Source: a virus
Length of the DNA: 64,000 nt
Virus record (IMG/VR): IMGVR_UViG_3300042731_005759
Coordinates: 96,001 to 160,000 of that record
Direction: 5' to 3' (one strand)
How positions within the stretch are numbered: the stretch's first letter is position 1; each line of letters starts with the position of its first letter. The notes beneath the pieces were generated by a model. That model ran no database searches. It was not told the DNA's origin and was given only the letters and a program-made list of their open reading frames with translations. Positions 3 to 25,136 of the stretch are shown here, piece after piece. The translations under genes and the position numbers were made by a program.

Positions 3-3000
3 GGGTGGGTCGATTATGAACTAACAGGAAATACACAGACCGAAACAAACTACCAAAATGAACTCACAAGTAATGGTGAGTCGTATAGTTGTGAGGTCGC
101 ACCTATTCTTTCATATAAAATATTCACAGATACTGATGGTATAAAGAAAATAAGTGTCACACCTATTAAATACGACGTACCATTATATACTGACAATACT
201 TGTAGAACTGAGGCGGATATTGATTGTTTAGATGGAGATACTTTTGATTTCTATTTTGATACATTTTACTTAACAGGAACAACCTGTTGTAATCCACAGG
301 TAGATGTGTATGGACCGAATAAATTTTATACCCTACCTGAGGATGAAGATGAATGTATCCTCATGGAGGATGTATACTTCAAGGTTTCAGGAATTACTTT
401 CGGAAACGAAGATATTGTTGATGATGGAGATCCATGTACAACTTGTCCACCATATAATACAACATGGCCAACAAACATTTTTATCAATTGTGTTGGTGGA
501 TATAACGAATCAATTTCAGGTAATACAACATTACAAGAAGACCAAACAGTTGAATGGGTATCGGGTTGTACTTTCGTTATAAGAAATGTAAGAGAAAATG
601 ACGTAATAGACATAACTATCACTGACGCGGCTAACTGCGATCAAAAAGTTAGAATTGATGGATTACAACAAAAATTTGAGTGGGATCCTATTGATGGTGA
701 CGATGTTACCGAATCACGTAGTCATTTTTTCCAATACACAATCGATTCTTATTTAGAAGGTGAGGATTACCCAACTCACGATCCATCAGTAAGTCAAAGT
801 GGTATAACATTCTGTGATAATTTTTCAGGATATACCCTACACCCAACGGTACAATATAGACCTACTTTTGATTATGGTCTAAAACAAAATACTAAGGTCA
901 TTAAAATTAACAATGGTGTTATTATAGATGACGAAAATACTTGGGTAGATGTACAGAATTATTTCCAAGATAATACATTAGAGTTAATCGATGTTGAAGA
1001 TGTTCAAATAGGTGATAGATTACTTTCAGGACAATATCTTAACTGTCCTTTCAGTTCAAGTGATTATACAAACGCAGTACTGAGTGGTTATTCATTTAGT
1101 TACAATTACTTAACCGTTGAAGTGGACAATAAAGATTGTTTAGGATCAACAAAAGTAAATGTGATTAATGAAAGATTTAGAGTTTTACCAAATTCTAAAT
1201 TAAGGGTAATGACACAGGTGGGAGATCATTGGGAGTTTACAGAAAAATATCCTGAAGAATTAATAGTGAGACCACCTGAACCAACAGAACCTTGTTGTAA
1301 TTACGGTGTAGACTATTATAAAAAAGGTGATTTACTAATAAACGAATTAGGTTTTCCAATCGAGGTAACCTCATTAGATTTAGATTATTGTCAAAGAGAT
1401 TTATTTTATCATCTGAATGTTAGTGCTGTTTACAGACAACCATCAAATACATTAAGTATTGTTCCTGATAATCCTTTTGGTGTTTCCACAGAATGTTGTA
1501 CGGAAGTTATATTATTTAATGGTGATGTTGACGATCAAATATTGGTAGAATATGATGAACAAATATTTGAAAATTTAGATCTCAGTTCACAACAATATTA
1601 TCAAGACCAATTAGATTGTGTTGATGAGCCAACAATCGAAGATTTAGAAAGACCCGAATATACGGAAAACTGTAATGATCTAAATGCGTTTATTGGTATA
1701 CATTATACTGATGGTAACCAAATATTAATTGAGTATGATGAATCGTACAATATTGGTAATATAGTTCAAGTATCAGAGATTAACTCACAACTAACAGAAT
1801 ACCTCTCACCAGGTATGGATTGTTATGAACTAACAGGAATAGCATACTCTGAAAATATTACACATCAAATACTTTCTATATGTACTGATTTGATAACACC
1901 AACAGCGTCTCCCGCACCAACAGGAACACCAACTCCAACACCAACAATTACTGCTAGCCCAACACCTTCACCATCACCTTCAGAAACACCTGAACCTACC
2001 CCTTCACCAAGTCCTAGTGAGACTCCATCACCAACATCAACGCAAACTCCTACACCATCACCTTCACCAAGTGAGACCCCTGAACCTACTCCTTCACCAA
2101 GTCCAAGTGAAACTGCAGAACCTACACCAACACCTTCAGAAACACCTGAACCGACTGCAAGTGAGACGCCACAACCAACAAGTAGTAGTACGCCAGAACC
2201 AACACCAAGTACTACACCTGATCCAACACCATCACCTTCACCTAGTCCATCACCATCACCGAGTCCTTCTCCAAGCCCAAGTCCATCACCAAGTGCAACG
2301 GCAAACTGTGACTTCGATGTTGATATAGACATTGCGACTCCAACCCCCACAAATAGTAGTACACCAGAACCAACACCTAGTCCATCCCCTTCACCTAGCC
2401 CATCTCCATCACCAAGTCCTACAGTTACTGCAAACTGTGACTTTGACGTTGATGTAGATATTGCTACTCCTACACCAACACCATCTCCATCACCTAGTCC
2501 TTCTCCGTCGCCAAGTCCTTCTCCGAGTCCAAGTGCAACGGCAAACTGTGATTTTGACATTGATATAGATATTGCAACACCAACACCTACACCAACAAAT
2601 AGTAGTACACCTGAACCTACCCCTAATCCTACATCAAGTCCTACACCATCACCTAGCCCTTCACCTTCACCATCACCAACACCTAACTGTGATTTCGATG
2701 TTGATATAGACATTGCAACTCCGACTCCGACTCCTTCACCATCACCGAGTCCTTCTCCGAGTCCGAGTCCAAGTGCAACTGAAAACCCAACACAAACACC
2801 AACACCATCCCCAAGTCCTACGCCAAACTGTGACTTTGACGTTGATGTAGATATTGCAACTCCTACGCCAACACCTAGCCCTTCCCCTTCACCTAGTCCA
2901 TCACCATCACCATCACCAAGTACTACACCTGAATCAACACCAACGCCTTCACCTAGCCCATCCCCTTCACCAAGTCCAAGTCCAAGTGCAACGGCAAACT

Positions 3001-4631
3001 GTGACTTTGATATTGATATAGACATTGCAACTCCGACCCCAACACCTACAAATAGTAGTACACCTGAACCTACTCCTAATCCTACACCATCACCAACTGT
3101 AAGTGTAACTCCTGACGCAACACCTAATCCAACGTCTACACCACCTGCAACGGAAAATCCAACACCTACTCCTAGTAGTACTGCAATTCCGACTCCAACA
3201 CCATCACCTAGTCCGTCACCGTCACCATCTCCGAGTCCTACACCAAACTGTGATTTTGATATTGATATAGATATTGCAACACCTACACCGACACCAAGCC
3301 CATCACCTTCACCTAGTCCATCACCATCCCCTTCACCTAGCCCAAGTGTAACACCTGATCCTACATCAAGTCCAACACCATCACCTAGTCCATCACCATC
3401 ACCAAGTCCTACACCTAATTGCGACTTTGATGTTGATGTAGATATTGCGACTCCTACGCCAACACCAACAAATAGTAGTACACCTGAACCTACCCCTTCA
3501 CCAACACCAAGCAGTACTCCAAACCCTACAGCGAGTCCTACTCCAAGTAGTACTCCTAACCCTACGGCAAGTCCTACCCCAAGTCCTACCCCTAATCCTA
3601 CAGCGAGTCCTACACCATCACCAAGTGTAACTCCTGATCCAACTCCTACGCCTTCACCTAGTCCATCACCAAGTCCTTCACCAAGTCCAACACCTAATTG
3701 TGACTTTGACGTTGATGTAGATATTGCTACCCCTACACCAACACCATCTCCATCACCTAGTCCATCACCATCACCGAGTCCTACCCCAAGTAGTACTCCA
3801 AACCCTACAGCGAGTCCTACTCCAAGTAGTACTCCTAACCCTACTGCAAGTCCAACACCTTCACCTAGCCCATCACCAAGTCCAAGTGCAACACCAAACC
3901 CTACACCATCACCTAGCCCATCTCCATCGCCAAGTCCAACACCAAACTGTGATTTCGATGTTGATATAGATATTGCAACTCCTACTCCTACACCATCACC
4001 ATCTCCGTCGCCTTCACCTAGCCCATCGCCAAGTCCTAGTCCATCACCATCGCCAAGTAGTACACCAAATCCAACTCCTACACCAACACCATCTCCATCG
4101 CCATCACCGTCTCCGTCACCATCACCTAGTCCAAGTCCGACTCCAAGTCCGACCCCTAGTCCTACTGCAGTAGATTGTCCACCTAGTTGTGGTACACAGA
4201 TCTATAAAAACTCATATGTACCAACAGGTAGTACTTCATCTGTTAGTACAATTAAGGATCTCGGTGGATACTGTACTGAAAATAGAGTGGATGGTGATAT
4301 AGTATCTACAAGTGGTGCAGAATGGGTATATAATACAAATAATTGTGTTGTATATGTTAGATCTTATAGTGGAGGATCAAGTAGTACGTGTGTTGGTGAG
4401 TATGTAACACCTACAGGAACTGAGGTTAGTTCATTTGTACACACTGAAGGTACGTTAACACCAACAGGAAGTAATAAATTATACGATACAGGAATCAGAT
4501 ATATTGACTCTAATAATAACGCAATTGTGATTGTGACTGAATGGAATTCATCACTAATGGATTTAGTTAGAGTTTGGGTATTATGTGATTGTAGTTTTGA
4601 AGGTGAAGTAATAGAAAATTTTGAAGGATGA
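3..4631 (+). CDS. Giant modular Cys-rich structural protein, 5'-truncated: degenerate Hint-like region, long P/T/S linker with 10 NCDFD[VI]D[VI]DIA repeats, Cys-rich C-terminal domain
   Basis: The frame of the 306..4631 ORF is open back to position 3 ([11 protein letters not shown]...), so GTG306 is internal and the true start lies upstream of the window. Repeats are visible in the translation. Confidence 0.85.
2304..3977 (+). repeat. 10 in-frame copies of NCDFD[VI]D[VI]DIA separated by TP/SP linkers
   Basis: Copies start near 2304, 2434, 2544, 2685, 2826, 2997, 3246, 3417, 3696 and 3945. Confidence 0.95.
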
Positions 4632-4671
4632 TAGACTATAAAATTGAAAAATTAAACTATATATTTTAATA

Positions 4672-7600
4672 ATGAGTCAGGTAAGATATTTTGATGTAAC
4701 AATTAGTTCGGGAACCTCACATAGTACATATATTATATACTATGATCAGGTTAACGCGTCTAATATTGCCACAAGAGTATCAACTAATTTACCTGCAACA
4801 GGAGTTACATATTCAGATTTAACTTCACTTAATGGTGTTAGAGTTCAAGTACCTTACACTGCAACAACAATATTATTGTATAATAACTCATGTGTTGTTG
4901 ATGACGAAATTATCTTACCAACACCAATTCCCACATCTACACCTACACCCACTCCTTCCCCAAGCCCATCACCTAGTCCATCACCTTCACCTAGTCCATC
5001 ACCAAGCCCTACACCATCCCCAAGCCCAAGCCCATCCCCAAGTCCAACACCTAATTGTGACTTTGATGTAGACATAGATATTGCAACTCCCACACCAACC
5101 CCATCACCTTCACCTAGCCCATCACCTAGTCCGTCCCCATCACCAACACCAAACCCTACACCAAATCCAACACCATCCCCAAGCCCAAGCCCATCACCTT
5201 CACCTAGTCCATCACCAAGTCCTACACCGACATTTAGTCCAACTCCAAGTGCAACACCAAACCCTACTGCGAGTCCAACACCATCTCCTAGCCCGAGTCC
5301 ATCACCAAGTCCAACACCGTCACCAACACCTAATTGTGACTTCGATGTGGACGTAGAAATGAATTTAGCACCTACAGGGTTTACACCATTTGCTTTTCAA
5401 CAGTTTGAAAATACGGCAACAGGTACAACGATAGCGACACTTTCAGCAAGTGATCCTGATTCGGGTGATACACATACATTTAGTTTAGTGTCAGGTTCAG
5501 GTAGTACAGATAACGCATCATTTACTTTATCAAGTGCAGGTGTTCTTAAAAATGCAGTAGTATTCAACTATGAAACAAAATCAAGTTATTCGATAAGAGT
5601 AAGAGTTACAGATCAAGGTGGACTAAGTTTTGAAGGTACAAGAACAGTATCAGTTCGTAACGTAAATGAAACTCCGTATGGATTGACATTAAGCAATAAT
5701 ACACAGAATGAGAATACCGCAACAGGTACAACCATCGGAACGTTCTCAGGTTTAGATGTTGATAGTGGTGAAACATTTACATATACACTTTCGGGAAGTG
5801 GTAATGATAACGCATCATTTACTTTATCAAGTGCGGGAGTTCTTAAAAACGCGATAGTATTCAATTACGAAGTTAAAAATTCATATAGTATCGAAGTAAC
5901 GGTTACTGATAGTGGTAATAACACCTATACTGATACATTTACAATTTCAGTCCTTGATGTTAACGAAACACCTACTAATATTACTTTATCAAGTTCATCT
6001 ATAGATGAGAATGTACCAACAGGGACTACAATTGGAACATTTAGCTCATCAGACCCTGATAGTGGAAATACCTTTACATATAGTTTAGTAAGTGGAACAG
6101 GATCATCAGGAAATGGTAGTTTTTATATCGATGGTACAAGTCTGAAGAGTAATGTTGTATTTGACTATGAAACACAATCATCTTACTCTATAAGGGTTAG
6201 ATCGACAGATCAAGGAGGTCTTTACGTAGAAAAAATATTAACAATATCGATTACAGACATATCAGTATCAGGTACTGCAACAGTCACAAACTTAAATTGT
6301 TATAATGATTCCTCAGGAACAATTGAAGTCACTTCTCAGTCAGGGGGTGACTCACCATACACATATTCAATTAATGGTATATCGTATCAATCATCAACGT
6401 CATTTACAGGTTTGGGGGCAGGAACTTATACAGTATATATTAAAGATGATAATGGTGAAATAGGTACGTTATCAAAAACAATAACACAACCACCCGTACT
6501 TTCAGTGACTGATTCACACACAGATCCAACATGTTATGGAGGAAGTGATGGTGAAATTGTCTTTAGTGTTGCTGGTGGTACAGGTGAAAAAACATATACA
6601 ATAAATGGGGATGTAACAACAGATACAACTCATACAGGTTTGACTGCGGGTACATATACTTTCATTGCGACAGACGAAAATGGATGTACTGATAGTAGAT
6701 CGGTTACTTTGAGTGTAACGCAAGTGTCAGTTAATTTTGACGGAAGTGATGTTAGTTGTAATGGTGATTCAGATGGTAGTATTAGGGTTTTCTGTCCAAC
6801 AGGTGGTAGTGGATCGGGATACGAAGTCAAAATAGGGTCCAATGCATATCAAAACTTACCAACTGGTTGTGGTTTTGGTGATGGAGTAAATTACACGGCA
6901 TTAACTGCAGGTACATACACTATCACAGTAAAAGATGGGGATGGTTGTGAAAGACAATATACAAGAGTAATAACAGAACCTACTACTTTATCAGCATCTG
7001 CAAGTGGTACTCTACCAACCTGTAGTAATAGTTCAGATGGTACAATAACAGTAACCGCCAGTGGTGGTACATCACCATATGAGTATGATTTAGCGAATAC
7101 AGGTTACCAAACCTCAAACGTATTCAGTAACCTAAGTTCAGGTTCATATACAGGTAGGGTAAGAGATAATAATGGGTGTATTGGGGCGTTTAGTGTTGAT
7201 ATCACAAGAACTCAAGTGTCTGCAACAGTAACACAAACAAATGTTACTTGTAATGGTGATGATGACGGAACAATAACTGTTACAAGTCCATCAGGTGGTA
7301 CAGGTACAGGATACGAAGTAAAATTAAATAGTAATGGTACTTATGTAAATCTTGAGACAGAAACATATAGTAATTTGGCACCAGGAACATACACAGTTTA
7401 TGTTAAGGATAGTAATGATTGTGAAAGAACATATAGTATAACAATAACTGAAAATGCGGTGGTGACCGCAAGTGTTACATCAACAGACCCAACATGTTTC
7501 GGTAATACTGATGGTAGTATAACAGTAACGGGATCAGGTGGAACAGGATCATATACTTACAGTATTGGAAGTGGTTACCAAGCATCAAATACTTTTACCA

Positions 7601-9903
7601 ATTTAGGAAATGGTGCATATAATATATCAGTTCAAGATAGTAATGGTTGTATAGGTACAACCACAAGAATCCTATTGAAACAAGAAGTTTCCGCAACAGT
7701 AACACAATCTAATGTTACTTGTAATGGAGGATCAAATGGATCCATTACGGTATCCTCACCTACAGGTGGAAATGGTGTCCCATATAGTGTAAAATTAAAT
7801 AGTGGTTCTTATACAACAACATTCCCTAAAACTTACTCGAGTTTAAGTGCGGGGACGAACACTATAACCGTTAGAGATACTGACGGATGTACAAAAGAAT
7901 ATAGTATTACTATTACAGAACCAACTGCGGTTAATGTTACATCAAGTTCTGTGACACATCCAACATGTAATTACAGTAGTGATGGTGAAATAACAGTAAG
8001 TGCTACGGGTGGAACAGGCACTAAACAATATTCTATTAACGGTCTTTTATATCAGTCTTCAGGGACATTTACAGGATTAAGTGTTGGATCTCATACATTA
8101 TTTGCAAGAGACGAAAACAATTGTGTTGATACGGTATCGGTGACACTAAGTAAATCTCAGGTTACGGCAACCGTAACTCACACAAATGCAAGTTGTAATC
8201 TTGCAGATGGTGGTGGTTCGGGTACAATCACAGTATCCTCACCTACAGGTGGAAATGGAGGCACATACCAATCTAAATTGAATAGTGGGTCTTATACAAA
8301 TATAGGTACGTCAAAAACATATAGTAATGTGTCCGCAGGGACACACACAATTACCGTAAAAGATGGTAGTGGGTGTACAACATCATATTCTGTGACGATA
8401 ACACAACCAAACGCACTTACAATAGGGAGAACCATGGTAAACCCAACCTGTAGTAATAGTTCAGATGGATCAATAACATGGACAGTTGGGGGAGGAACGT
8501 CACCGTACTCATATACATTAAATGGTGATGTAACTGAAACCCTATCACATACAGGATTAACAACAGGTAGTTACACTTTGGAAGTAACAGATGATAACGG
8601 TTGTACAAAATCACGATTAGTTACGTTGAGTAAATCAGCGGTAACCGCATCATATAGTGTCAATAACCCTCTTTGTAATGGTGAATCAAATGGATCTGTA
8701 GAAATCACATCAATTACAGGAGGTAATGGTGGAACCTACCAATATCAATGGGATGGTGGAACATGGACAAACTTCTCAGGTTCCGCAATAATAGGTTTTC
8801 AATCTGCGGGAACATATACATTAAAAGTGAGAGACAGTCAACAATGTACAACAACATATTCTGTGAACTTAGGTCAACCATCAGCCCTTAATTTAAGTCT
8901 ATCACCAACAGGTCCAACGTGTTGGGATGGTAGTGACGGAGAAATTACTGTTACTGGTACAGGTGGAACTTCACCATACACTTATAAAATCGGTTCAGGT
9001 AATTACCAAATCTCAAATACATTTACTGGTTTAACTGACGGATCATACATAGTTACAATAAGAGATGCGAATAGTTGTACTAATTCGGCAAGTACTACGG
9101 TATCTACATCAGCACCATCGGCAACATTTACAACAACGGATGTTTCTTGTAATGGTGGTTCTAATGGTTTAATAAATGTTGCAAATCCAACAGGTGGTAG
9201 TGGATCGGGATATTACCATAGACTTAATAATGGATTATGGGTATTAACTTTCCCTTACAATTATGGTGCTTTATCCGCGGGAACATACACAATCGATATA
9301 AAGGATGGTGATTCATGTGAAAAGTCTTACAGTGTCACCGTGTCTCAACCTACAGCGGGTACCGCATCTATTTTAAGTTACGTATCTGGTAGTAATGGTT
9401 CTATAACTGTTACATCCTCAGGAGGTACATGGAATAAAACTTATAGATTATATGAAGATACTGCGTCACCTTATACAAATAGTGGGGGTGTACTAACAGC
9501 CACAATCACAGGTGTTACCTCATCAAATCCATCACAAACATTCTCCAACCTCTCCGAAGGTTACTATTACGTTGTTATAACTGACGCTAATGGTTGTACC
9601 GCAACATCGGCAGTACAAAGTACTTTCGCAGGTTCAGTAGGAGATCTTAAAATTAGTAGGTGTGGTGATAGTGTAATATACTATGCAAATAGTCAATTTG
9701 GTTGTAGTGAAGGGAACGATCTATTGATGCCATTTGGATTTAATATTGGAGATATAGTTCAATTTGCGGTAGGGACGGATTGCCCACACGGTACTACTTA
9801 TTGTGGTGAAATAACAGCAACTGATCAAAGTAATGAATCAACAGCAATATTAACAAGTGAATTTACACAGGATGATTGTAACTCACCTGACTGTAATGAA
9901 TAA
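4672..9903 (+). CDS. Modular adhesin-like virion protein: shared N-domain, PS linker with 2 NCDFD motifs, 3 cadherin-like repeats, about 13-14 SprB-like repeats, Cys-rich tip
   Basis: Cadherin motifs (ENxxxGT, DxDxGxT, F[ND]YExxxSYSIxV). Repeats of C-x-G-x-x-[DN]G-x-I-x-V...GG...Y...GxYxxxVxDxxxC. No signal peptide or T9SS C-terminal domain seen. Confidence 0.85.
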
Positions 9904-9966: not shown

Positions 9967-10509
9967 ATGGCTTATCAAGTAACATTTACATTAAATGCGT
10001 TGTACACAGGTACAACGGAAGCGGACAACTTTACAATAGTTGGGAAACATTCAAACGGTTCCCCCGCAGATACAACAATAGCAACAGGGGTCGCTAAGGC
10101 GGATTTAATCGCGGGAGTAACCTACCAAGTTGCAGATACAATAACAGGAGGTACAGTAACCTCAACAGGGACATGTACTAATTCTGTGAATTGGGTTGGA
10201 CAAGGAGGTGCGGCACCAACGGCAACACCACAAGCAACACTAGGACCAACGGCAACACCATCGGAAATTTCATATTACCAATTTAGTTACTGTGATACTG
10301 GTGATCAACCACAAGGAGTTACAACTGTTGACGTATCATCAGATGAGTTAACGGCAGCAGGATTTAATGCATTACCATCACCAGGTAACCCAACTCTTGA
10401 ATTCCAAGGGTTAGGTGGTTGTTATGAATACAGACAGGTAGAAGCAAGTAGTAGTGATGGTCGTCTCATTTTGACCGTGAACGAATGTACTTGTGATGAG
10501 TCGGCATAA
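9967..10509 (+). CDS. Small modular virion protein (shared N-domain, PT linker, CYEY-type Cys-rich domain)
   Basis: N-domain (TIATGVAKADLIAGV...STGTCTN) resembles those of 4672, 13231 and 23730. C-terminus FSYC...CYEY...CTC. Confidence 0.8.
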   Translation: MAYQVTFTLNALYTGTTEADNFTIVGKHSNGSPADTTIATGVAKADLIAGVTYQVADTITGGTVTSTGTCTNSVNWVGQGGAAPTATPQATLGPTATPSEISYYQFSYCDTGDQPQGVTTVDVSSDELTAAGFNALPSPGNPTLEFQGLGGCYEYRQVEASSSDGRLILTVNECTCDESA

Positions 10510-10538: not shown

Positions 10539-10565
10539 AAAAAACCCTCACTCGAGGGTTTTTTT
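10539..10565 (+). terminator. Intrinsic terminator, possibly bidirectional
   Basis: AAAAAACCCTC-ACTC-GAGGGTTTTTTT. Confidence 0.85.
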
Positions 10566-10581: not shown

Positions 10582-10589
10582 TATTTATA
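10582..10589 (+). promoter_or_regulatory. Putative late promoter TATTTATA, 12 nt before ATG
   Basis: Directly after a terminator; ATG at 10594. Confidence 0.7.
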
Positions 10590-10593
10590 ACAT

Positions 10594-11889
10594 ATGGGAT
10601 TAGTAGTTAGGTTATATGACATAGTTTCACCCAATAAATTCAAGTTGAGTATTGGGTTATCACCGTATGGTAATTTTGATCAAATAGTGGGATCAGAAGC
10701 CAATGGATATTTTCTACCGTCAACTACGGGAACTACAGACACCACCCATAGAAATTATAGGACAGATCCTATATGTATAACAGATAATAACCCCGAGATT
10801 ACGGGTTCAACATGTTCTGTATATGAATCTTTGACATTTGATACGAGATATTTTCTGAAATTAGAGGATACATCAAATCTTGTAAATCAATGTGATACTA
10901 ATCCATGTATTGATAATACGGAAAAGAGACATATAATTGAAAGTATATATATCAGTGATAGTAAGACGTTTGATTGTTATGACAAGATTAAATTTGATGT
11001 GGATTATGTATGTTTAACTCCCACACCTACTCCAAGTGCAACACCTAATCCAACCCCTAATCCTACTACATTACCGAATCCAACCCCCAACCCAACACCT
11101 GAACCTACCGCAAATCCAACACCTAATCCTACCGCAGATCCAACACCACAACCAACACCTCAGTGTTTACGTTACATAATAACAGTCACTGACCAAAAGG
11201 TTGCATTAGTAGTAACGTATACGGATTGTGCGACTGGTTTAACAGATACGGAAACTATAAATCCATCAACATCTGAAACCCTTTGTTCACTAACTCAACC
11301 AGTGAGATCATCAGGTACCCTACAATACTACATTGGTGAGGGTACAGATAACTGTGCAAATGCACCTACTCCGAATCCAACACCTAATCCTACCGCTAAC
11401 CCAACACCTAATCCAACTGCGGAACCTACACCTGAACCAACACCTGAACCTACAGGTTTATGTATAGAAGTTTCAGATTTTGTGGCGAGAACTGACTTAT
11501 CAACAACTTTTACTTGGGAAGACTGTGATGGGAATAGTTATAGTATGAATATACCTGCAGGAGACGCGGCACCACCTTCATCGGGGCCATGTGTTAGACA
11601 AGGTACTGTATCATGGGTACCATCAGGCGGAAATGCGAGGGTAGACTTAGCGATAAGTCCTTCAGGACTTTGTGATGGTGGTGAACCAGTTACAACACAG
11701 TGTTATAATTACACATTATCAGTACCTAGTATGGGTGAAACTACGAGTACTTTCTCATATACCGCATGTAATGGAGACGAGAGGACATGGACAGGATTGT
11801 CTGGTGATAATACATCAGTATGTGCACAAGATGGTACGGTAAGTGTAACATCGGGACCTGGAACATACTATAAAGGAAGTGCATGTTAA
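10594..11889 (+). CDS. Modular virion protein with PT linkers and three small 4-Cys domains
   Basis: Three repeats of C..Y...[YW]xxC..G...C...C separated by PNPT linkers. Confidence 0.8.
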   Translation: MGLVVRLYDIVSPNKFKLSIGLSPYGNFDQIVGSEANGYFLPSTTGTTDTTHRNYRTDPICITDNNPEITGSTCSVYESLTFDTRYFLKLEDTSNLVNQCDTNPCIDNTEKRHIIESIYISDSKTFDCYDKIKFDVDYVCLTPTPTPSATPNPTPNPTTLPNPTPNPTPEPTANPTPNPTADPTPQPTPQCLRYIITVTDQKVALVVTYTDCATGLTDTETINPSTSETLCSLTQPVRSSGTLQYYIGEGTDNCANAPTPNPTPNPTANPTPNPTAEPTPEPTPEPTGLCIEVSDFVARTDLSTTFTWEDCDGNSYSMNIPAGDAAPPSSGPCVRQGTVSWVPSGGNARVDLAISPSGLCDGGEPVTTQCYNYTLSVPSMGETTSTFSYTACNGDERTWTGLSGDNTSVCAQDGTVSVTSGPGTYYKGSAC

Positions 11890-14603: not shown

Positions 14604-16562
14604 ATGGGTGTAAGATTAACGGTCAATAATTTATATAATAATGGTGTGTGTTCTGAGTATGGGATATACACTGCCACAACGTACAATGGGGACCCATATG
14701 TGATCCCTCCAAGTGCAACATTTTTAGGTGAACACTCACTTCCTTACGAATTTACCTTAAGTAGTATTACAAGTGGACCTATTTATGTATTTGTTGAACA
14801 TTGTGACAATCATATTTTACCACCACCAAACGAAGATCCAAAAAGACAAGGTGGATTTCAAGTAAAATTGGTAAACATTGACTGTGAACCTGATTGTCCT
14901 ATTGGACCGACAGGTACACCTAATCCAACTGCTTTCCCAACCGCAACACCTCAACCAACTCCTAACCCAACTAATGAACCAACACCTAATCCTACACCGA
15001 ATCCAACTGCGGAACCTACACCTGAACCAACTAATCAACCAACACCATCCCCAAGTCCAACACCTAACTGTGACTTCGATATAGATATTGATTTTGGTAC
15101 GACACCAACTCCGACCCCTACAACTAACTGTGATTTTGACGTAGATATTGATTTCGGTACTACCCCCACACCAACATCCACACCTAACTGTGACTTCGAT
15201 ATAGATATTGATTTGGGTACCACACCAACTCCAACACCAACTAATAATTGTGATTTTGATGTTGATGTAGATATTCTTACACCAACTCCAACACCAACTA
15301 ATAATTGTGATTTTGATGTTGATGTAGATATCCTTGTACCAACACCATCACCATCACCTTCACCAACTAATAATTGTGATTTTGATGTTGATATAGATAT
15401 TGTTACTCCGACACCAGTACCAAGTCCAACATCTACACCTAATTGTGATTTCGATATTGACATAGATATTGTAACTCCAACATCTACACCTAATCCAACA
15501 TCTACACCGAATTGTGACTTTGATGTAGACATAGATATTGCAACACCAACACCAACACCTAATCCATCATCTACACCTAACCCATCATCAACACCTAATC
15601 CAACACCTAACCCTACTGCAAATTGTGACTTTGATGTAGACATAGATATTGCAACACCAACACCTACACCATTACCAAGTAGTACACCACTACCGTCATC
15701 TACACCTAACGCAACCCCTAATCCAACCCCTAATCCAACCCCTAATCCAACACCTAACCCAACTAATGAACCAACACCTAATCCAACACCTAACCCAACA
15801 TCAACACCTAATTGTAATTTTGCTGTTGATGTAGATATTGCAACACCAACACCGACACCTAATGCGACTAATCAACCCACACCTAACCCAACTAATGAAC
15901 CAACCCCTAACCCTACCGCAAATCCAACATCAACCCCTAATCCAACACCTAACGCAACCCCTAATCCAACCCCTAACCCTACCGCAAATCCAACAAGCAC
16001 ACCTATTCCAACCCCAACTCCAACTGAAGGTGGAGGTGGAGGTGGCACACAGTATTGGGAGTTAGAATTTTGTGGTAGTGAAGCGACAGCACTTATATAT
16101 CTGATAGATAACCTCTCTCAGTACGAACCAGGTGATGTAATATCTTATGGTGGAGATTGTTATACTACAGTTCAAGTCACAACACCACCTAATAAGGCAA
16201 TATTAATAAATCCTGACAATACCTTTACAGACTGTTCTCAATGTACAGGTAGTATGACACCAACATCAACACCTAGTCCTTCTGCAACGGAAGAGGCGAC
16301 TTATTGGGTTCTAAGAACATGTGACGGTGGGCCAACTTTAAATGTTATACATGACCCATTCCTTAACCTAAATCAAGGTGCTGCGGTTTACGCCAATAAT
16401 GAATGTTATGAATTATTTGCTTTAACCTCAGATGATTCAGGTTTAATACTCCACAGTGGAGAATACGAAAATTGTACGGCATGTATAAATGATAATGACC
16501 TACCTCAGGAGGGTATAGAAAATGAGGAAGTAGGACCTACACCAACTCCAACAGAAGAATAA
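14604..16562 (+). CDS. Scaffold-like protein with 10 NCDFD-type repeats and two Cys-rich tip domains
   Basis: Repeats at 15066-15842; two YW.L..C...CY...CxxC domains. Confidence 0.85.
15066..15842 (+). repeat. 10 in-frame NCDFD[VI]D[VI]D repeats (last is NCNFAVDVD)
   Basis: Direct reading of the translation; spacing as short as about 19 codons. Confidence 0.95.
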
Positions 16563-16571: not shown

Positions 16572-19547
16572 ATGGCATCAATAAAACTTACATGGTCACA
16601 TCCGAACAACAACATCCCAACTGAGGGATATATTGTTGGTTATAGACCTAATGGTTCTTCTGATCCGTATGTGGAAATTTATGTAACTACAGGAACTGAG
16701 GTTATGTTGGATGACCTATTACCAAACACTTTATATGAGGGTTATATTAAATCTAATAACGGTAATGGGATTATTAGTAATGGTATTACTTGGTTACATA
16801 ATTGTGAAAGAGATTGTACGTTAGGGGTTTCTTTTATTGAAAAAACACCTCCGTTACCACCAACTGCGACACCAACTCCAACACCTAATCCAACATCTAC
16901 ACCATTTGCAACATCACCACCACAACCAACACCAACAGCAACTTTAAATTGTTATATATACACTATTGAACATGATAGTACGATAAACGTAACTTCACCA
17001 AAATTCACTTGTTACAGTTATGTAAAATGTGAAGATGGACTAACGTATAATGTGTGTGTGTCAGAGGTTAATGCCTTTGATTATCCTACACAAATTGACG
17101 TTTGTGCTGTTGAAAATACAGTTCAAAACATAACAGATGGTATTAATGTAATTACACAGGGTGTGGCATGTATTAATGAAAATGATGTACCAACCCCAAC
17201 ACCAACAATTACTTTAACTGCAACACCAAGTGCAACTTCAACACCACAACCAACAAGTACACCTTTACCTACAGAAACAAATATACCGACACAGACTCCA
17301 CAACCAACTTTACAACCAACACCTACACCGTCTATAGACCCTAATTTGCCGACACCTAATCCTACTGCAACATCGGGTAACGAACCGACACCTAATCCTA
17401 CTGCAACAGTAGACCCTAATTTACCGACACCCTCACCAACGTCAGGGGATGGACTTGATCCTACTCCAACAAATACTGGTGATGGTAATGAACCTACACC
17501 AGAGCCTACTTCAACACCAAATAATTTAGGTCCGACTCCAACACCAACATCAGGAGATGGTAATGAACCAACACCTTTCCCAACACAGACACCAGTATCA
17601 ACAAGTACACCTATTCCAACTCAAACACCATTACCAACAAATACACCATATGCAACACCTGAACCAACACATACACAACAACCAACAAGTACACCTGTAC
17701 CTACAGAAAATTTAGAACCTACACCTACACCAACAGATTGTGAGGTTGATTTAGATTGTTACTCAGAAATATTAGATCCTAATTTACCGACTGCGACACC
17801 TAATCCAACACTTGTACCAAATCCAACTCCTAATCCTACAAGTACGAATTACCCAACACCTGAACCAACACATACACCACAACCAACAAGTACACCTTAT
17901 CCAACTGGTGTGTCAAACCCAACACCTGTACCAACAAGTACTCCTAATGCGACTTCGACTCCACAACCAAGTCCAACACCATTTGCAACTCCAAACCCGA
18001 CTCCGATACCTTCGTCTACACCTGACGCAACACCACTACCGTCATCTACACCTGATGCAACACCAATTCCTACAACAACACCTGATCCTACACCAATTCC
18101 AACCTCGACACCTGAGTCAACACCTAATGCAACACCAATTCCTACAACAACACCTGATCCTACACCGATACCTTCCTCTACTCCTGATCCGACGCCACTA
18201 CCATCATCAACACCTGACCCAACTCAGGATCCAACCCCTAACCCAACGTCAACACCTAATCCCACACCAAATCCAACTGCATCGGAAACACCACAACCAA
18301 CGTTAACAAGTTCACCGAATCCAACCGCAACACCATTACCAACACAATCATCAAGTGAGGTGTGTATAATGTACGATTGGTTAGGTAGTCAAGTGATACC
18401 ACAATCTCATGGTAAAGCATATGCGGACACAACAACTGTTAGTTCTATAACTGAGTTCTATTTATATGATCTTGGTTGTGGTCAACAAGACTTTGAGTAC
18501 TTAGTAAATAACTTCTTAACAACAGGATATACATTCACAGTTAGTAGATCTGCGGACAGTAGTTCAGCAACATTTACCTTAGATAGTTTAAGTGATAATG
18601 CGTCTAATGATTATTGGACATTAGGTGTGACGTATGTTTCAGGAAATGTTACACAAGCACCTTCAGGATTACCATGTCACCAACCAAATACTTTCTGTTT
18701 CAATTATCCTCCACAATCGGGTCAACCTACTCCTGAACCTACAAGTACACCTTATCCGACACCCGCACCTACAAGTACACCCGAAGCAACAACGGACGTA
18801 TTGGCACCAACATCAACATTAGGTTATGTCGATGATAATCCACAACCAACACCATTTGCAACACCTAATCCAACACCTGAGTATGGACCAACAGCAACGG
18901 AAGTTTTACCACCAACAGCCACAGCAATAAGTGAATTAGGTGTATTACCAACTTCAACACCACAATCAACACCTTTCCCAACAGATTATCCAACCCCGAC
19001 TCCAACTGAGAATGGTGGATCAACCTCATTAGCATGTAGATTAACAGTTATAGGTTCTGCGGAGGAAGATGAATCGTTATGTGAATTAGTAATAAAGTCG
19101 TCTTATTCTTTACCTGAACCTACACCAACTCCAACAGTAAATAATTGCGAACTTGTATTGATTGGATCTTCAGAAGATTTAGATTGTGAATTAGTGTTAT
19201 TATCAAGTTACAGTGCATTACCAACCATATATACATATTATGTGGTAAATGATTCGACAAACCATTATATATTCTATAATGACGAAAATGGTAATGATCT
19301 TGTGGGGAACGACCCACAACTCACAATTAAAGTGGGGGACACATTAAACATAACGAACTTATCGGGTGGACATCCATTATACTTTAAAACATCTCCTACA
19401 ACAGGTACGGGTGATCAAGTAAATGGTGCGACAGGACAAGGAGCAACCAATGGAACAGTATCATGGACACCAACAGTTGCGGGAACATATTATTATCAGT
19501 GTAGTGCACACATAAACATGTCAGGTATTATTACAGTGACCAACTAA
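16572..19547 (+). CDS. Modular virion protein: N-terminal FN3-like domain, long PT linkers, CELV-type strands, C-terminal cupredoxin-like domain
   Basis: IKLTWSHP...GYIVGYRP...LLPNTLYE resembles FN3. GGHP...GTYYYQCSAHINMSG supplies type-1 Cu ligands. Confidence 0.8.
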   Translation: MASIKLTWSHPNNNIPTEGYIVGYRPNGSSDPYVEIYVTTGTEVMLDDLLPNTLYEGYIKSNNGNGIISNGITWLHNCERDCTLGVSFIEKTPPLPPTATPTPTPNPTSTPFATSPPQPTPTATLNCYIYTIEHDSTINVTSPKFTCYSYVKCEDGLTYNVCVSEVNAFDYPTQIDVCAVENTVQNITDGINVITQGVACINENDVPTPTPTITLTATPSATSTPQPTSTPLPTETNIPTQTPQPTLQPTPTPSIDPNLPTPNPTATSGNEPTPNPTATVDPNLPTPSPTSGDGLDPTPTNTGDGNEPTPEPTSTPNNLGPTPTPTSGDGNEPTPFPTQTPVSTSTPIPTQTPLPTNTPYATPEPTHTQQPTSTPVPTENLEPTPTPTDCEVDLDCYSEILDPNLPTATPNPTLVPNPTPNPTSTNYPTPEPTHTPQPTSTPYPTGVSNPTPVPTSTPNATSTPQPSPTPFATPNPTPIPSSTPDATPLPSSTPDATPIPTTTPDPTPIPTSTPESTPNATPIPTTTPDPTPIPSSTPDPTPLPSSTPDPTQDPTPNPTSTPNPTPNPTASETPQPTLTSSPNPTATPLPTQSSSEVCIMYDWLGSQVIPQSHGKAYADTTTVSSITEFYLYDLGCGQQDFEYLVNNFLTTGYTFTVSRSADSSSATFTLDSLSDNASNDYWTLGVTYVSGNVTQAPSGLPCHQPNTFCFNYPPQSGQPTPEPTSTPYPTPAPTSTPEATTDVLAPTSTLGYVDDNPQPTPFATPNPTPEYGPTATEVLPPTATAISELGVLPTSTPQSTPFPTDYPTPTPTENGGSTSLACRLTVIGSAEEDESLCELVIKSSYSLPEPTPTPTVNNCELVLIGSSEDLDCELVLLSSYSALPTIYTYYVVNDSTNHYIFYNDENGNDLVGNDPQLTIKVGDTLNITNLSGGHPLYFKTSPTTGTGDQVNGATGQGATNGTVSWTPTVAGTYYYQCSAHINMSGIITVTN

Positions 19548-19548: not shown

Positions 19549-19555
19549 TATTTAT
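19549..19555 (+). promoter_or_regulatory. Putative late promoter TATTTAT, 12 nt before ATG
   Basis: ATG at 19561. Confidence 0.65.
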
Positions 19556-19560
19556 GAACA

Positions 19561-22500
19561 ATGGCGTTTTTAGTTGAAATAGGTTTAAATAATCCATCAT
19601 CGGGGGCATCTACTTATGATGTTTATATCACTGACTTTGATGTAAACACGGGTTGGATTCAAGTTGTGTCGGGTATCACCTATAACCAATTTCCTGTTAT
19701 TGTAAATACTGATGATTATCCCGACGTAAATCACAGTATAAAATATAAAATAGTTAGTGATAATGGTTGTGAATGTGAGGGTTGTCCTGGTGAACAAATA
19801 ACAGTTACATACGCTCACGAAGATCAAAACGGGGTATTAACGAATTTTAATGCATCGAATACCACATACTCTGAAATGGAGACGATCTTATGTAACTATG
19901 GTTCTGGCCAAGGACTTTTAGGTAATGGTAATTATAAGATTCAAAAACATGGTTCTAATGTCGCGATAGGAGATGCAATCTTTTACTCATGGAATGATGC
20001 ATGTAACCCATACAGTAATAGAATATTTTACCTAAAAGAAACTCTTAATATAATACCAGGTTACTACGTCGTTACAGATGGTAACGGTATAATAACACAA
20101 TTAGATTATATAGATTGTACATCACCAACCGCAACACCAACACCAAGTCCTTCAGAAACACCTGTTGCCACCCCTAATCCTACTGCATCACCAACACCAA
20201 GTAGTACACCTAATGCCACTCCAAACCCTACTGCATCAGAAACTCCTGATGCAACACCTAATCCTACATCATCACCAACTCCAACACCTACTGAAACAGA
20301 AGATACAAGTCCTACGCCGACACCAAGTAGTACACCTGATGCAACACCTGTACCCCTACAACCGACTAGTGTGATAATATCAGAAGATAATATTTCATAT
20401 GTGACCGCAGCTAATGTGAGTCCTTCCAACTATCCACAAAAAGACGCCGAATATGAAGGTTGGTCGTGGTTAAATATGGAGTCAGGGTACGAGGTAAGTA
20501 ATACTAAGAATTGGGAAATTTACGATTCTAATCTTAATCTTTTATCAGGAACGAATCTTGAAGTTGGTTACAGAATTAGACAGGTTCCATTAAATCAGAA
20601 TTACTACCAAACTCCTGGTGGTATTTATTATTCATTTGTGTGGACCGACGGGAATAATGTCACTTATCTTATAGGTGTTAATGGGGTTTCAGAGACATTT
20701 ACGTATTATGGTAATCCATATACGGTTACATCATTAGATGTAACCTCTAAAACACTAATGAGTGATCTAACATTACCCTCAGGTTATACATTCTACCCTA
20801 ACCAATTTGGACCAGTTGGAGATGGTCAACCATGGCCACCAGCTAATGAAAGGTTAGGAAGGGTACAACCTTATGATTATCCTGAAATTGTAAATTCGGA
20901 TACGTCGTTTGGGTATACCACAGTTGCCGATGGAGATCAGGGAACAACTGATATATTTATTTTTGCGACTCACCCCAAACCACAACTCAATACGGTTATA
21001 CCATCATTATCACCATCTAATACAATTTCATTCATAACTAATTTTACAAATGGGTCAGACTCATCGCTTTTGGTTGATCAGTATTATAGGGTACATATTT
21101 ATCATACTGAATATGAAGGTGTTAATAGTGCTGACGCAATTTCACACGCAAGTACCACACTAATAGGTACAACTAACGATGACCAAATTTCATCTGGGAG
21201 CCTAATGAATAACTCTGGGGTGGGAAGAACGGTAACCTTTACACCATCAACAACAATTGATTTAACAAATAAACGATTAGTATTTAGATATGAATTATAT
21301 CAATTAGATAATGGTAATAGTTATGAAAATTACAATGATTATACATCGAATATTCATATAAGAGCAGGTAAGAGAGTCTCCGCAACAAATAACACACTTA
21401 CAAGAATTACGATTAGTGGAGATATTATTACCCCAACACCTAACCCTACTGCAACACCACAAGCAACACCTGACCCAACTGCAACTAATGTACCGACCGC
21501 AACACCACAATCGACACCTAACCCTACTGCAACACCAACAGGTACACCGAACGCAACACCTGAACCAACACCAACTAATACACCTAACCCTACTACGATA
21601 CCTAACGCATATTTTGTATCAAACAGTGGTACTGATTCCTTAAGTTCAAATGGTGATATCAATAATCCGTTTAGAACCTTAGATTATGCAATCTCAAGAA
21701 TAAATAATGAAGACACGATATATTTTAGAGAAGGTTCCTATGAGTTTGACGAAAAAGAAATAACAACCACTGGTTTATCATTAAAATCATATAATAATGA
21801 AAATGTTGTCTTTGACGGAACTAAATCAATCGACGAGTTAAAAGATATTTCTGTTAATGGTGGTAATTGGGTGACATACACAACTGATGTTGTGACAGAT
21901 AACAATCAAACTATAAATGATAAAACACTTTATAGAATTAAATTAAGAAACGATGTTGAAATTTGGCAACTTTTCCATGACAGAAAAGAAGTGATAAACG
22001 CAAGATTCCCAAGTGCTCAATGGGATGATGAAAGTGTATATAGTCATGATAATTGGGGTCATGGGTATTATGATTATAAAGATAATGGAGATATTGAGGA
22101 TGGTTCAGGTAATATTATAGGAAATGGAACTGGTAGTCATTACTATTATGAGAATGGTGAAATAGTTGATGTGGCACATAACAATATTAATCTATATGAT
22201 TTTGTTACCGCTCAACAGGGAATAGATAACACATTTGATCTTTCAGGTTCTCTCATCAACTTGAATGTTGGTTCATTTAGAAGTTATACAAAAGTGGTAA
22301 ACTCACAAACATTAGATACCTCTAATCAGGTTATTAGATTATCATATGATAACGTTGCCACATGGAAAGAAAAACACCATTATTATTATTTAGAAAATAA
22401 ATTAGAATTTTTAAATAGTGAGAACGAATGGTTCTTTGATAACAGTACCAAATATCTATATGTTTGGTTAGAAAACGATGAGGTTCCTAGTTTAACAAGT

Positions 22501-23682
22501 ATAAGAGCAAAAGTACAGAGTTATTCATTAAATGTAACTGCGGATAATGTAACTGTTGAAGACATTAATTTCTTTGGAACCACATTAAGAGGTAATGGTG
22601 CTGCTAATTTAACAGTTCGTGATTGTGATTTCTTATATGCAAGTTGTTACCCACATATGTTAAATCAAATAAATTATGGAACACCTATCAGTCCTACCAC
22701 TGATGAAGTTTTCGAAAATCAAACAAGAGTCACAAGTAGTTCAAATGTAACTTTTGAAGGTTGCGCGTTTAGGTATACTGACGGTGATGTAATTCATACA
22801 TCAGGAGGAAATACCACAATCGAAGATTGTTACTTCAATTACATAGATAAAACAGTTACCAACCTATCATCTGTGATGACAACTCTTAGACTTATGGGTA
22901 GTGGTAATATTGTTAAAAACAATACTTTCCGTAAAACAGCAGCGTCTTCAACATTGAATTCAGGTAATGCACCAATCATTGAGTATAACGATATGGCCGA
23001 GAGTGGTTACTTACAAAGTGACGGTGCCATGATACACCTTATGACAGCACAACAAGAAAACGCCAAAATCAGATTCAATTGGGTACACGATACAATTAAA
23101 TATGGTATAAGATTCGATGGAAATGGTGAAGGATTTAATGGTTATGTTCACCACAATATTGGGTGGAATTGTGAAGGTGCAATAATGATAAAAGGTGGTG
23201 AGTTAGACGCTAATGGTAATAGTGTTGGTGGACATTTTGTATATAATAACACCGCTTTCAATAGTACGGTGAAGAATGACATCATGGTATTAAATGTTCA
23301 AGCGGGTCAGGACATCAACTTTGGTTCAGTGGTAATGAATAACTTATCTGAGACGTTAAGTGGTCATAGAAGTGATCCTGAGGCATTTGAATCAAGAATA
23401 ATAAATTCTAATAACTTCACACCAACTAATGTGGAAGATTATTTAGTAAATGTAAATAGTAATGATTATAGACCAATAAATGATGGGTCAATAGTAAATG
23501 CGGGTAATACCACATATACTAATAGTGAATTTAGTCCAACTGGTGTTGATTCATTGACGGACGATATTGGTGCTATGGATTATAATGGTAATTCATGGCA
23601 AGCGGGTATAACATGGAATAATGAGAGATTTAATTTTTATAGTGAACTAACCCCACAACCAACACCAACTAATACTCCTTAA
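19561..23682 (+). CDS. Modular virion protein with C-terminal right-handed beta-helix (polysaccharide lyase/depolymerase-like)
   Basis: YFVSNSGTD...[12 protein letters not shown]...IYFREGSY cap motif, followed by Asn-ladder repeats ([31 protein letters not shown]). Confidence 0.8.
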
Positions 23683-23717
23683 ACGGATTTAATTAAATAA
23701 TAAATTAAAAGAATAGA

Positions 23718-23725
23718 TATTTATA
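23718..23725 (+). promoter_or_regulatory. Putative late promoter TATTTATA, 12 nt before ATG
   Basis: ATG at 23730. Confidence 0.7.
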
Positions 23726-23729
23726 ACAT

Positions 23730-25136
23730 ATGGCACTTAGAAACGTAACATTAACAGGAACTACAATCGGGAGCGGAATCTCGAACGTAAGTATTTACCA
23801 CAGTTTTGTGGATCCGAGCAATTTAATACAGGCGGGAGTAACCAGTACACAATTGGCTAATGGTTACACCTTCCAAGATCAAGATTATAGATACACATAT
23901 TATGTTGTATCAGATTCTGCGTGTGGAACAAACACGAGAGTTGTTCTACCAAACGCACCAATAAGTACATTTACTGAAGGTCAAATCGTGGATATCAGTG
24001 ACAATGTTATAACACACGACATCACGGCAATAGGTAATACGATAACAGGTACTCAAAACGATTGGATGATTTTTACAGAATTTGGATCAACAAGCAACGG
24101 ACATATAGTTAGATCAGATGATAATGGACAGACTTGGATTAAAGAATCAAGTTCTTCTGCACCTGATAGAGCGATGGCATTTGTTAACAACAGTACCAAA
24201 TCAATCCAAGGTGGTGTATCTTATCCTGTATCCGTTGGTAGTTGGGCTTATAATGCTTATGGGTATTTTACATCAAATGGTGGTTCTAATTGGTCCCAAC
24301 AAAATTTAATGACTCGAGGTACTGTTAATAGTAGTGCATACAACTCAGGTTATGTTGGGTATTCTTTTCAAGATGTTCAGACAAGAACCACTGCTGAAGG
24401 GACTCAAAGAGATGGTCACAACAAATTTGTTTCCTATTTAGGGGCACAGTGGATGTCCACGACGGGACAGTATTTTTCAACAGACTATTCATACAGTCAG
24501 AAAAGTCATATTGATGAGTGGTTAAATAGTTCTAGCCCTGTAGCTACTTGGCAGAATCGTGATTCCAATGTTAGTGCATCAGGAGTTAGTCAATCTTTGA
24601 GAGGGTATGGGTGTAGACTAACTGATGAAACTGGTCTAGTGAAGATATTTGCAGGTGCATCAAGTGGTTATATGTTAAAAATAACGGTGGTTAATACCTT
24701 CACTGCGGTATCATCTGGTGAGTCAGGTACAAACCAATTAATAACTGCGGTTGGTCATAATCAAGAGGAACTCAACGAACATGGTCAGGATGGTTCTGAA
24801 ACTACATGGTTGGCAGCAATAGAAGACCCAAATCAAGCAGCTAACACACAGGAGTTTATTATGAGTACTGATGATGGTGATAATTGGGTTTCTTATACAG
24901 GAACTAATATGGACACGGATTATATATACGATATCAAATACATAAAAGGTAGATGGTATGCCGTTGGTAAGAAAGGAACCGAAGGTAGGATTTGTTCCAC
25001 TGCGGACTTAAACGATCCTTGGGAACAAATGGGTACAACAAAACCTTGTAAAACAATAGGTGTTGGTAGAGATATTGAAAACACAAAAATAATAATTGGT
25101 TGTGAAGAAGGATATATAGTACAGAATCAAGTTTAA
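23730..25136 (+). CDS. Shared N-domain fused to BNR/Asp-box beta-propeller
   Basis: Asp-box motifs RSDDNGQTW, TSNGGSNW and STDDGDNW. N-domain IYHSFVDPSNLI...CGTN matches 13231. Confidence 0.75.
   Translation: MALRNVTLTGTTIGSGISNVSIYHSFVDPSNLIQAGVTSTQLANGYTFQDQDYRYTYYVVSDSACGTNTRVVLPNAPISTFTEGQIVDISDNVITHDITAIGNTITGTQNDWMIFTEFGSTSNGHIVRSDDNGQTWIKESSSSAPDRAMAFVNNSTKSIQGGVSYPVSVGSWAYNAYGYFTSNGGSNWSQQNLMTRGTVNSSAYNSGYVGYSFQDVQTRTTAEGTQRDGHNKFVSYLGAQWMSTTGQYFSTDYSYSQKSHIDEWLNSSSPVATWQNRDSNVSASGVSQSLRGYGCRLTDETGLVKIFAGASSGYMLKITVVNTFTAVSSGESGTNQLITAVGHNQEELNEHGQDGSETTWLAAIEDPNQAANTQEFIMSTDDGDNWVSYTGTNMDTDYIYDIKYIKGRWYAVGKKGTEGRICSTADLNDPWEQMGTTKPCKTIGVGRDIENTKIIIGCEEGYIVQNQV

Follow-up and report, generated by a model that had tools for sequence, protein, structure and literature searches.

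Ten consecutive genes for proteins built around linkers rich in proline and threonine raise the question of what a large phage would do with such a set of products, and where they would act. The genes lie at positions 3 to 25,136 of a 64,000-nucleotide stretch of viral DNA (hereafter the window), which comprises bases 96001-160000 of the 176,087-bp IMG/VR viral record IMGVR_UViG_3300042731_005759. A sequence-only reading had proposed that the products form a branched, cellulosome-like appendage on the virion. Our own answer, which we are slightly more inclined to accept than to doubt, is that the stretch is the hypervariable far end of a tail/baseplate gene module and encodes tail-held stalked adhesins. 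What stands of the earlier interpretation is one late-type modular array in a tail/baseplate module, with beta-sandwich N-terminal modules, linkers, a strand peptide and exchanged modules; the single family of N-terminal domains and the generality of the two scaffold proteins do not stand.

In this module a gp6-like wedge gene is followed by the genes for five conserved proteins and then by gene 1 (g1), whose giant product has a conserved core and, at its C-terminus, a mucin-like stalk that varies; in the arrangement we envisage, nine stalked adhesins come next. Each of the nine consists of an N-terminal beta-sandwich of small size (at least five are FN3-type), Pro/Thr linkers and distal modules. 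Synthesis would be late, alongside virion proteins, and the N-terminal modules would hold the proteins on the tail or baseplate. Flexible, probably O-glycosylated stalks would then present the distal modules so that they bind or cut glycans or proteins of the host surface, while an amphipathic strand peptide led by a cysteine would serve as a selected joint that makes beta-sheet contacts, possibly disulfide-locked after lysis.

Genomic setting and expression signals

CheckV rates the record as 51% complete, so the whole genome would measure ~350 kb. Among the proteins encoded on the record are the large terminase, the sheath of a contractile tail and a baseplate wedge protein similar to T4 gp6. 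Flavobacterium phage immuto and Microcystis phage Mel-JY01 are the closest relatives in culture, with only 25-28% identity in the terminase and the wedge protein. The phage is an uncultured, contractile-tailed marine phage that belongs to a large aquatic clade of distant kin to the T4-like phages. Its wedge gene lies ~9 kb upstream of g1, 11.6-13.4 kb before the window start. From ~160 related loci gathered around homologues of g1 and of the gene that closes the array (gene 11, or g11), the clade is seen to have a fixed gene order: wedge, u1 (~1,250-1,440 aa), u2, u3, u4, u5, g1, linker proteins that vary as a set, g11, a RuvC-like resolvase and primase. This syntenic wedge-to-primase module recurs in hundreds of uncultured phage contigs. 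In phage immuto, annotated tail fibre and tail spike genes come after the wedge gene.

The two ends of the array are well conserved in the clade. The N-terminal 900 residues of g1 recur at 48-87% identity in at least 223 viral contigs, and its orthologues range from ~1,410 aa without a linker up to ~2,700 aa with linker and peptides. Here g1 is cut by the window; its ATG is at genome position 93174, 2,826 nt upstream, and the full protein has 2,485 aa. Gene 11 was found in at least 146 viral contigs at 39-76% identity and in 1,360 sequence clusters, all unnamed. The sequence-only reading took this neighbour for a tail-collar/baseplate-like gene, a label that we abandon: gene 11 belongs to no recognisable tail-collar or baseplate family, and the gene that can be recognised as a baseplate gene lies outside the window, upstream. 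The N-terminal 140 residues of g11 do resemble immuto26A_164, from the tail region of Flavobacterium phage immuto (tblastn 7e-5); full-length g11 found nothing by tblastn against cultured phages and only unnamed viral clusters in the ESM Atlas. Sequence searches of the PDB gave no match with the g1 core profile, u1, u2 or gene 10, and with g11 no more than a chance-level match.

Two of the variable proteins point to the virion through their distal modules, and we count both for the tail reading. The C-terminal domain of gene 8 matches phrog_677, 'baseplate wedge tail fiber protein connector' (5.8e-12), and the repeats of gene 2 match phrog_26672, 'virion structural protein' (8e-34).

The expression signals are of a late type. 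Most of the ten genes had been credited with their own TATTTAT motif, and the motif does occur no more than 50 nt upstream of six of them (genes 3, 4, 6, 7, 9 and 10), and likewise of u1 and u5. Across the genome it precedes 37 of 131 genes, where ~1.4 would be expected; terminase, tail sheath and baseplate-linked genes are included, and polymerase, helicase, primase and ribonucleotide reductase are not. Because it is found on virion-type genes and not on replication genes, we take TATTTAT to be a late or structural promoter-like element. Between genes 3 and 4, a GC-rich hairpin with a T run (10539-10565) stands just ahead of the TATTTAT at 10582, and to judge from the sequence this pair looks like an internal terminator plus restart within the array. 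Signal peptides are missing, as had been reported: no N-terminus has a hydrophobic core, and the top Kyte-Doolittle mean over 10 residues is 1.54. The array proteins would therefore leave the cell only at lysis.

Exit at lysis would also suit proteins that never join the tail. The array proteins might decorate the capsid, as Hoc-like fibres of Ig domains, or be released free to act on host glycans or as decoys; capsid decoration proteins, Hoc among them, typically carry stalked Ig/FN3 domains (PMC10385173), and tail attachment of the array proteins is itself our deduction. We nevertheless consider a place off the tail improbable. The position of the array between baseplate-linked genes and g11 is fixed in hundreds of contigs, its turnover pattern is that of host-recognition loci, the gene 8 tip shares its family with the connector named in phrog_677, and PHROG and profile scans of the window proteins found no family match pointing to a capsid-binding module.

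Farther along, the window holds an open reading frame (ORF) of more than 2,426 aa (56721-63998, running off the end) that is rich in coiled coil, with DUF7310 and tropomyosin-like matches. Ahead of it lie proteins of 1,041, 402 and 691 aa with weak matches to PHROGs of virion structural or unknown type, and on these matches the four may be a second fibre set.

Several points weigh against an array of tail-held adhesins. The giant coiled-coil protein could itself be the long fibre proper, and the array would then have an accessory role. No relatives of the array proteins demonstrated in virions were detectable, and g1, g11 and the family-A domain described below occur in no cultured phage. The Pro/Thr stalks are unlike the trimeric fibre architecture of known receptor-binding proteins (RBPs), and their glycosylation is deduced from gene content only. 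Finally, the attachment of the N-domains to the tail is putative.

Recombination in linker-coding DNA shifts modules between genes

The pace of change in the array is seen in a gene-by-gene comparison with a close relative, an ENA contig. RuvC, primase and the next gene are ~99-100% identical between the two phages (RuvC 100%, primase 98.7%), and g11 is 93% identical, while the array genes are just 47-83% identical, with gene 10 at 74%. The relative's orthologue of gene 7 carries 8 strand peptides against 10 here. The relative also encodes a 1,288-aa chimera, composed of the N-terminal part of gene 8 (51%), the middle domain of gene 9 (83%) and the cupredoxin tip of gene 8 (69%), and the beta-helix of gene 9 is missing. 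In the window itself, exact tracts of 30-56 nt are common to linkers that belong to different genes, and families of repeats extend over several genes. The array is a recombination hot spot, and recombination in linker-coding DNA shifts modules between its genes.

To obtain the parts list in the table, each protein was divided into linker and non-linker segments. Ten plus-strand ORFs fill positions 3-25136, in agreement with the ten consecutive, co-oriented genes first described. Two minus-strand ORFs rich in Gly, Val and Ser, at 1865-3025 (386 aa) and 15035-15643 (202 aa), were rejected as antisense readings of Pro/Thr-coding DNA, artefacts of its repeat composition.

Table. Genes of the array and their modules, in window coordinates.
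Feature	Position	Strand	Modules
Gene 1 (g1), 3' part	3..4631	+	Pro/Thr/Ser stalk ~1893-4175; Cys-rich C-terminal domain 4176-4628; conserved core of ~1,400 aa
Ten Cys-led peptide copies N-C-D-F-D-[VI]-D-[VI]-D-I within the g1 stalk	2304..3977	+	
Gene 2	4672..9903	+	family-A FN3-like N-domain 4672-4920; linkers; 3 cadherin and 12 SprB repeats; C-terminal 4-Cys module 9634-9900
Gene 3	9967..10509	+	family-A N-domain; short linker; 4-Cys module
Gene 4	10594..11889	+	family-B N-domain (~140 aa, 6 Cys); two linkers; Cys-rich modules
Gene 5	11901..13181	+	family-E N-domain; 90-aa linker; middle domain; C-terminal 4-Cys module
Gene 6	13231..14532	+	family-A N-domain; 4-Cys modules 13636-13866 and 13915-14154; C-terminal domain
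Gene 7	14604..16562	+	family-D N-domain; linker with ten peptides (15066-15842); two 4-Cys modules
Gene 8	16572..19547	+	canonical fn3 N-domain 16572-16856; linkers; cupredoxin-type C-terminal domain 19143-19544
Gene 9	19561..23682	+	N-domain; middle domain (aa 266-622); beta-helix-like tip 21604-23640
Gene 10	23730..25136	+	family-A N-domain joined without linker to BNR/Ycf48-like beta-propeller (aa 85-468)
Gene 11 (g11)	25155..27434	+	conserved 759-aa protein closing the array, without linker

That the proteins carry interchangeable tips holds, with SprB repeats (twelve) and cadherin repeats (three), a cupredoxin, a BNR propeller and 4-Cys modules all found and the beta-helix weak. Pfam identifies the repeats of gene 2 at 4e-79 for SprB and 1e-25 for Cadherin. 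Residues 906-989 of gene 8 match Copper-bind (plastocyanin/azurin) at E 1.5e-4, with a score of 22.5 bits where the cut-off is 21.2, so that by Pfam's own threshold the tip is assigned to the cupredoxin type. The tip of gene 9 has a weak match to the parallel beta-helix of PDB 9rx2 (E 0.0065). The propeller region of gene 10 resembles BNR/Ycf48-type propellers among ESM Atlas models, with template-modelling (TM) scores of 0.64-0.76; a pattern scan of viral contigs found no relatives of this gene.

The small 4-Cys module (~75-90 aa) recurs in genes 2, 3, 5, 6 (twice) and 7 (twice), with the pattern strand-C, then G-D-x-[VI], then C-Y-E, then C-x-x-C. It is left without a fold assignment because the C-terminal domain of gene 3 folds poorly in AlphaFold2 (AF2), with a predicted local-distance difference test (pLDDT) of 45-60. 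Gene 3 encodes a small protein (~180-200 aa) that is kept in many relatives. As for the linkers, said to be missing only from the gene at 23730, gene 10 indeed has none, and gene 3 holds just a short A/T/P linker. The linkers of gene 8 amount to ~430 aa in all and include strand hairpins bracketed by Cys.

N-terminal domains, the Cys-led peptide and their possible contacts

The N-terminal domains had been expected to form one homologous family. Clustering of the segments ahead of the first linker, taken from the ~160 related loci, together with hhalign comparison gave at least five families instead, with gene 9 standing alone. Genes 2, 3, 6 and 10 belong to family A, gene 4 to B, gene 7 to D and gene 5 to E, genes 8 and 9 are separate, and family C is the conserved 305-aa protein immediately upstream of g1. 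By hhalign, family A has a weak link to E (37%) and to gene 9 (56%), and none to B, D or gene 8.

Family A is the largest of these. It begins within the first 10 residues in 106 of the 106 members from related loci. A search with its profile among 1.84 billion representatives (50% clusters) gave 1,791 matches at E <= 1e-3. Of the best 150 library matches, 146 have the domain beginning at residue 1-3; two of the four exceptions with internal starts are multi-fn3 proteins (the two scanned that have clear Pfam matches). The AF2 model has a pLDDT of ~90 and matches FN3 domains with VIA Z of 6.0-7.1 and root-mean-square deviations of 2.2-3.2 A over 65-78 residues; in the gene 3 model, residues 1-80 (pLDDT ~90) form an FN3-like sandwich. 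Foldseek with that model gave nothing in the PDB at E <= 0.001, and uncharacterised proteins only among viral models. On the predicted structure, family A is an undescribed FN3-type domain. The N-domain of gene 8, scanned as a separate segment, matches Pfam fn3 at 1.1e-8 (35.6 bits against a cut-off of 25); these two groups were the ones examined, and both are of FN3 type, gene 8 by Pfam and family A by AF2. In whole records of 58-199 kb, including the window's own, family A is confined to the array. Since an FN3-type domain stands at residue 1, ahead of a stalk, in many different proteins of one locus, a role in attachment rather than adhesion is suggested.

The short Cys-led strand peptides of the sequence-only reading are confirmed as N-C-D-F-D-[VI]-D-[VI]-D, in 22 copies (10 in g1, 2 in gene 2 and 10 in gene 7, one a variant); those of gene 2 lie in its linkers at 5053-5085 and 5332-5364. 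The amino acids are near-invariant and synonymous codons are free (AAC/AAT 11:11, GAC/GAT 12:9, TTC/TTT 7:15), a codon pattern that indicates the peptide is under purifying selection. We also collected, with no motif presupposed, the short islands that separate linkers throughout the clade. The majority are of one type, with Cys, then D/E/N, then Phe, then alternating beta-branched residues (C-[DEN]-F-x-[VI]...), and diverged relatives (g11 39-46% identical) carry variants of the peptide in their g1 orthologues. Two members with ten copies each had been singled out as scaffolds. The ten copies are present in both g1 and gene 7, but the pairing is peculiar to this phage, and relatives carry the peptide mainly in g1 orthologues. 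Nor is the equal copy number meaningful, as the count in relatives is 7-22 for g1 and either zero or 8 for gene 7-like genes.

Two observations from related loci concern the origin and setting of such stalks. In a family-A protein at L060:115-3000, the peptide motif itself forms the last strand of the N-domain (C-S-F-D-V-T-Y-S-V), a hint that free peptides came from duplication of a unit made of last strand plus linker. At L144:14333-22546 and from L134:14336 onward, a short g1 (~1,414 aa) is followed by a gene of more than 2,700 aa, whose stalk protein has a 61-aa head, a spacer of ~2,000 Thr, Pro, Ser and Val residues and terminal small Cys-rich domains.

What the peptide contacts can be framed in two ways. 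In a scaffoldin-like explanation, which we rate as unlikely, the peptides of g1 and gene 7 would be multivalent docks at which the FN3-like N-domains add a beta-strand, and a Cys-Cys disulfide would fix the contact, giving a branched appendage. Each family-A domain here has exactly one Cys, directly ahead of the last strand, and each peptide has one Cys. Peptide-to-domain docking also has a precedent between the receptor-binding proteins of Klebsiella phage KP32 (PMC13352976). Structure prediction of the proposed interaction gave a divided result. With the family-A N-domain and the peptide segment both entered as alignments, the complex scored 0.51, against 0.03 for the best of three controls, a result classed as weak support; the runs agreed in at least 91% of contacts, and the partner pLDDT was at least 57. 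Among 80 solved complexes 58 reached the mark, as did 2 of 110 mismatched pairs; 7 of the 80 and both of these mismatches lay at 0.60 or below, and a score of 0.51 falls in the range that the tool rates as wrong more often than right. When residues 1-335 of gene 2, which hold the N-domain and two peptides in cis, were folded with AF2, both peptides were disordered (pLDDT <50), neither was docked on the N-domain or the first cadherin domain, and the N-domain was complete with its own last strand.

The distribution of the two parts is open to a simple objection. Among 32 records with a complete array, representing 29 distinct g11 sequences, every one of the 20 that carry peptides encodes two or more family-A proteins, and 8 of the 9 without peptides have none. 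Because one change on the g11 tree suffices to produce it, this co-occurrence is unreplicated and has no independent weight. One record (G004) has family A without peptides, peptides occur also in cis within family-A proteins, and Pfam scans found no cohesin or dockerin domains. In its fullest form, with N-domains docked and disulfide-locked after lysis on the g1 and gene 7 stalks as a cellulosome-like, glycosylated baseplate 'bottle-brush' whose peptide/domain code differs by phage lineage, the docking scheme would be decidedly unlikely.

Alternatively, the peptides may pair with each other, within a chain or between chains of an oligomeric g1, and form beta-sheet nodes that stiffen, register or cross-link the stalk. 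The nodes would form after release into oxidising, cation-rich water, and the small proteins would bind u1-u5, the g1 core or g11 through their N-domains. The residue pattern would suit such pairing, with hydrophobic and acidic residues alternating along the predicted strand and Cys turned to the hydrophobic side. Relatives have the peptide mainly on g1 orthologues, whose core is conserved, and its fast change in copy number (10 here, 15 in an 87% relative; 8 versus 10 in gene 7) fits an element of length or stiffness. N-domain families B, D and E moreover occur in records entirely without peptides. On the other side, the acidic alternation is not clade-wide, with variants such as C-N-F-T-I-E-Y-T-A, and the invariant C-[DEN]-F start gives the impression of a site for specific recognition rather than of a generic strand. 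Taken as a complete account this scheme is rather unlikely too, although peptides that join stalks to each other are at least as likely as the docking model.

Known systems and what the array may mean

Among described systems, the array comes closest to the branched multi-RBP complexes of Ackermannviridae, with TSP1-4 of the CBA120 type, and of Klebsiella phages KP32 and K11, in which RBP1 provides an anchor and a T4gp10-like branching domain and RBP2 carries a conserved N-terminal docking peptide (PMC11414711, PMC6872550, PMC13352976). The array shares with them a row of consecutive genes by the baseplate genes, conserved N-terminal attachment modules, exchangeable distal specificity modules and swaps between phages, and in KP32, too, a short conserved peptide docks one protein onto another. 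It differs in having Pro/Thr-stalked proteins rather than compact trimeric spikes and a conserved N-module of FN3 type. Sequence profiles from Pfam and PHROGs found no T4gp10-like branching domain or tail-spike-family anchor in g1-g11 or u1-u5. In contrast to KP32, the peptide here is internal, repeated up to ~20 times and contains Cys; if docking occurs, its polarity is reversed, with the peptide on the scaffold and the domain on the client.

The likeness to a cellulosome is one of logic only, in that a long protein would offer repeated sites between Pro/Thr linkers to clients with a common terminal module and varied glycan-active or binding domains. Pfam scans of the ten proteins and of their separate domains found neither cohesin (PF00963) nor dockerin (PF00404); secretion signals are absent here, and the interaction is a proposal. 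Gene 2 has SprB repeats like those of the SprB gliding adhesin, a cargo of the type IX secretion system (T9SS), but has no signal-peptide-like N-terminus and no Por_Secre_tail match; it borrows the SprB repeat, not the T9SS secretion route. In the donor-strand complementation of chaperone-usher pili, and in the tandem beta-zipper of fibronectin-binding peptides, a strand peptide adds to the edge of a sandwich. A short strand peptide could likewise join the edge of an Ig/FN-type sandwich here. A pilin-like groove left by a missing strand is not present, because the AF2 N-domain is complete and the models of genes 2 and 3 have a confident last strand after the conserved Cys. By defining features, then, the array is not a cellulosome, a T9SS adhesin or a donor-strand pilus.

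Ig-like and FN3 domains occur on structural proteins of tailed phages, for example on the capsid fibre Hoc, in variable number, and are thought to give weak adhesion (PMC10385173). The array proteins resemble this type in carrying FN3/Ig-type sandwiches on phage surface proteins and differ in that the FN3-type domain is always at residue 1, is followed by a stalk, and is found on many proteins of one locus.

The stalks are probably O-glycosylated, to judge from the sugar genes on the record, other Pro/Thr-rich proteins and a mycobacteriophage precedent. The cluster of sugar-modification genes lies at genome 165503-173323 (L090:5503-13323), 5.5-13.3 kb past the window end and 45 kb downstream of the array. 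Two of its genes encode glycosyltransferases of GT7 type with fused LamG domains; the others encode a GT2-like protein, a methyltransferase, a radical SAM enzyme and an NAD-dependent epimerase/dehydratase. Directly upstream of the cluster, at 161132-163095, lie the genes of two LamG proteins. Three further Pro/Thr-linker proteins, far from the array at genome 37227-45325 (L088:17227-19950, L089:1051-5325), have 907 aa (408 linker residues), 684 aa (386) and 735 aa, the last being protease-like (phrog_20754), and two of them have TATTTAT ahead. In mycobacteriophages, virions are reportedly O-glycosylated by phage glycosyltransferases, as Freeman et al. 2023 are said to have described. Common to both are the phage's own genes for sugar transferases and sugar nucleotides, together with Ser/Thr-rich stretches in probable virion proteins. 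In the mycobacteriophages the sugars go to short tails at the C-termini of capsid and tail-tube proteins, whereas here the sites would be among hundreds of Pro/Thr residues in fibre-like proteins.

What sets the array apart is its combination of a residue-1 FN3-type module, mucin-like stalks, an internal, repeated Cys-led peptide and borrowed bacterial adhesin domains. The definition of the N-domain families, the evidence of selection on the peptide and the direct evidence of module shuffling are new here. Neither Pfam nor PHROGs has a match for the residue-1 FN3-type module (~1,800 cluster representatives) or for the C-[DEN]-F strand peptide. Both could mark host-recognition loci for the annotation of metagenomic phages, and both are short enough for direct binding tests. 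The clade is widespread, with more than 1,300 sequence clusters of g11. If the stretch does encode tail-held stalked adhesins, many large aquatic phages would recognise their hosts by flexible mucin-like tethers, not by rigid trimeric fibres, and these tethers would carry borrowed bacterial adhesin and glycan-active domains that are quickly rebuilt through recombination in linker DNA.

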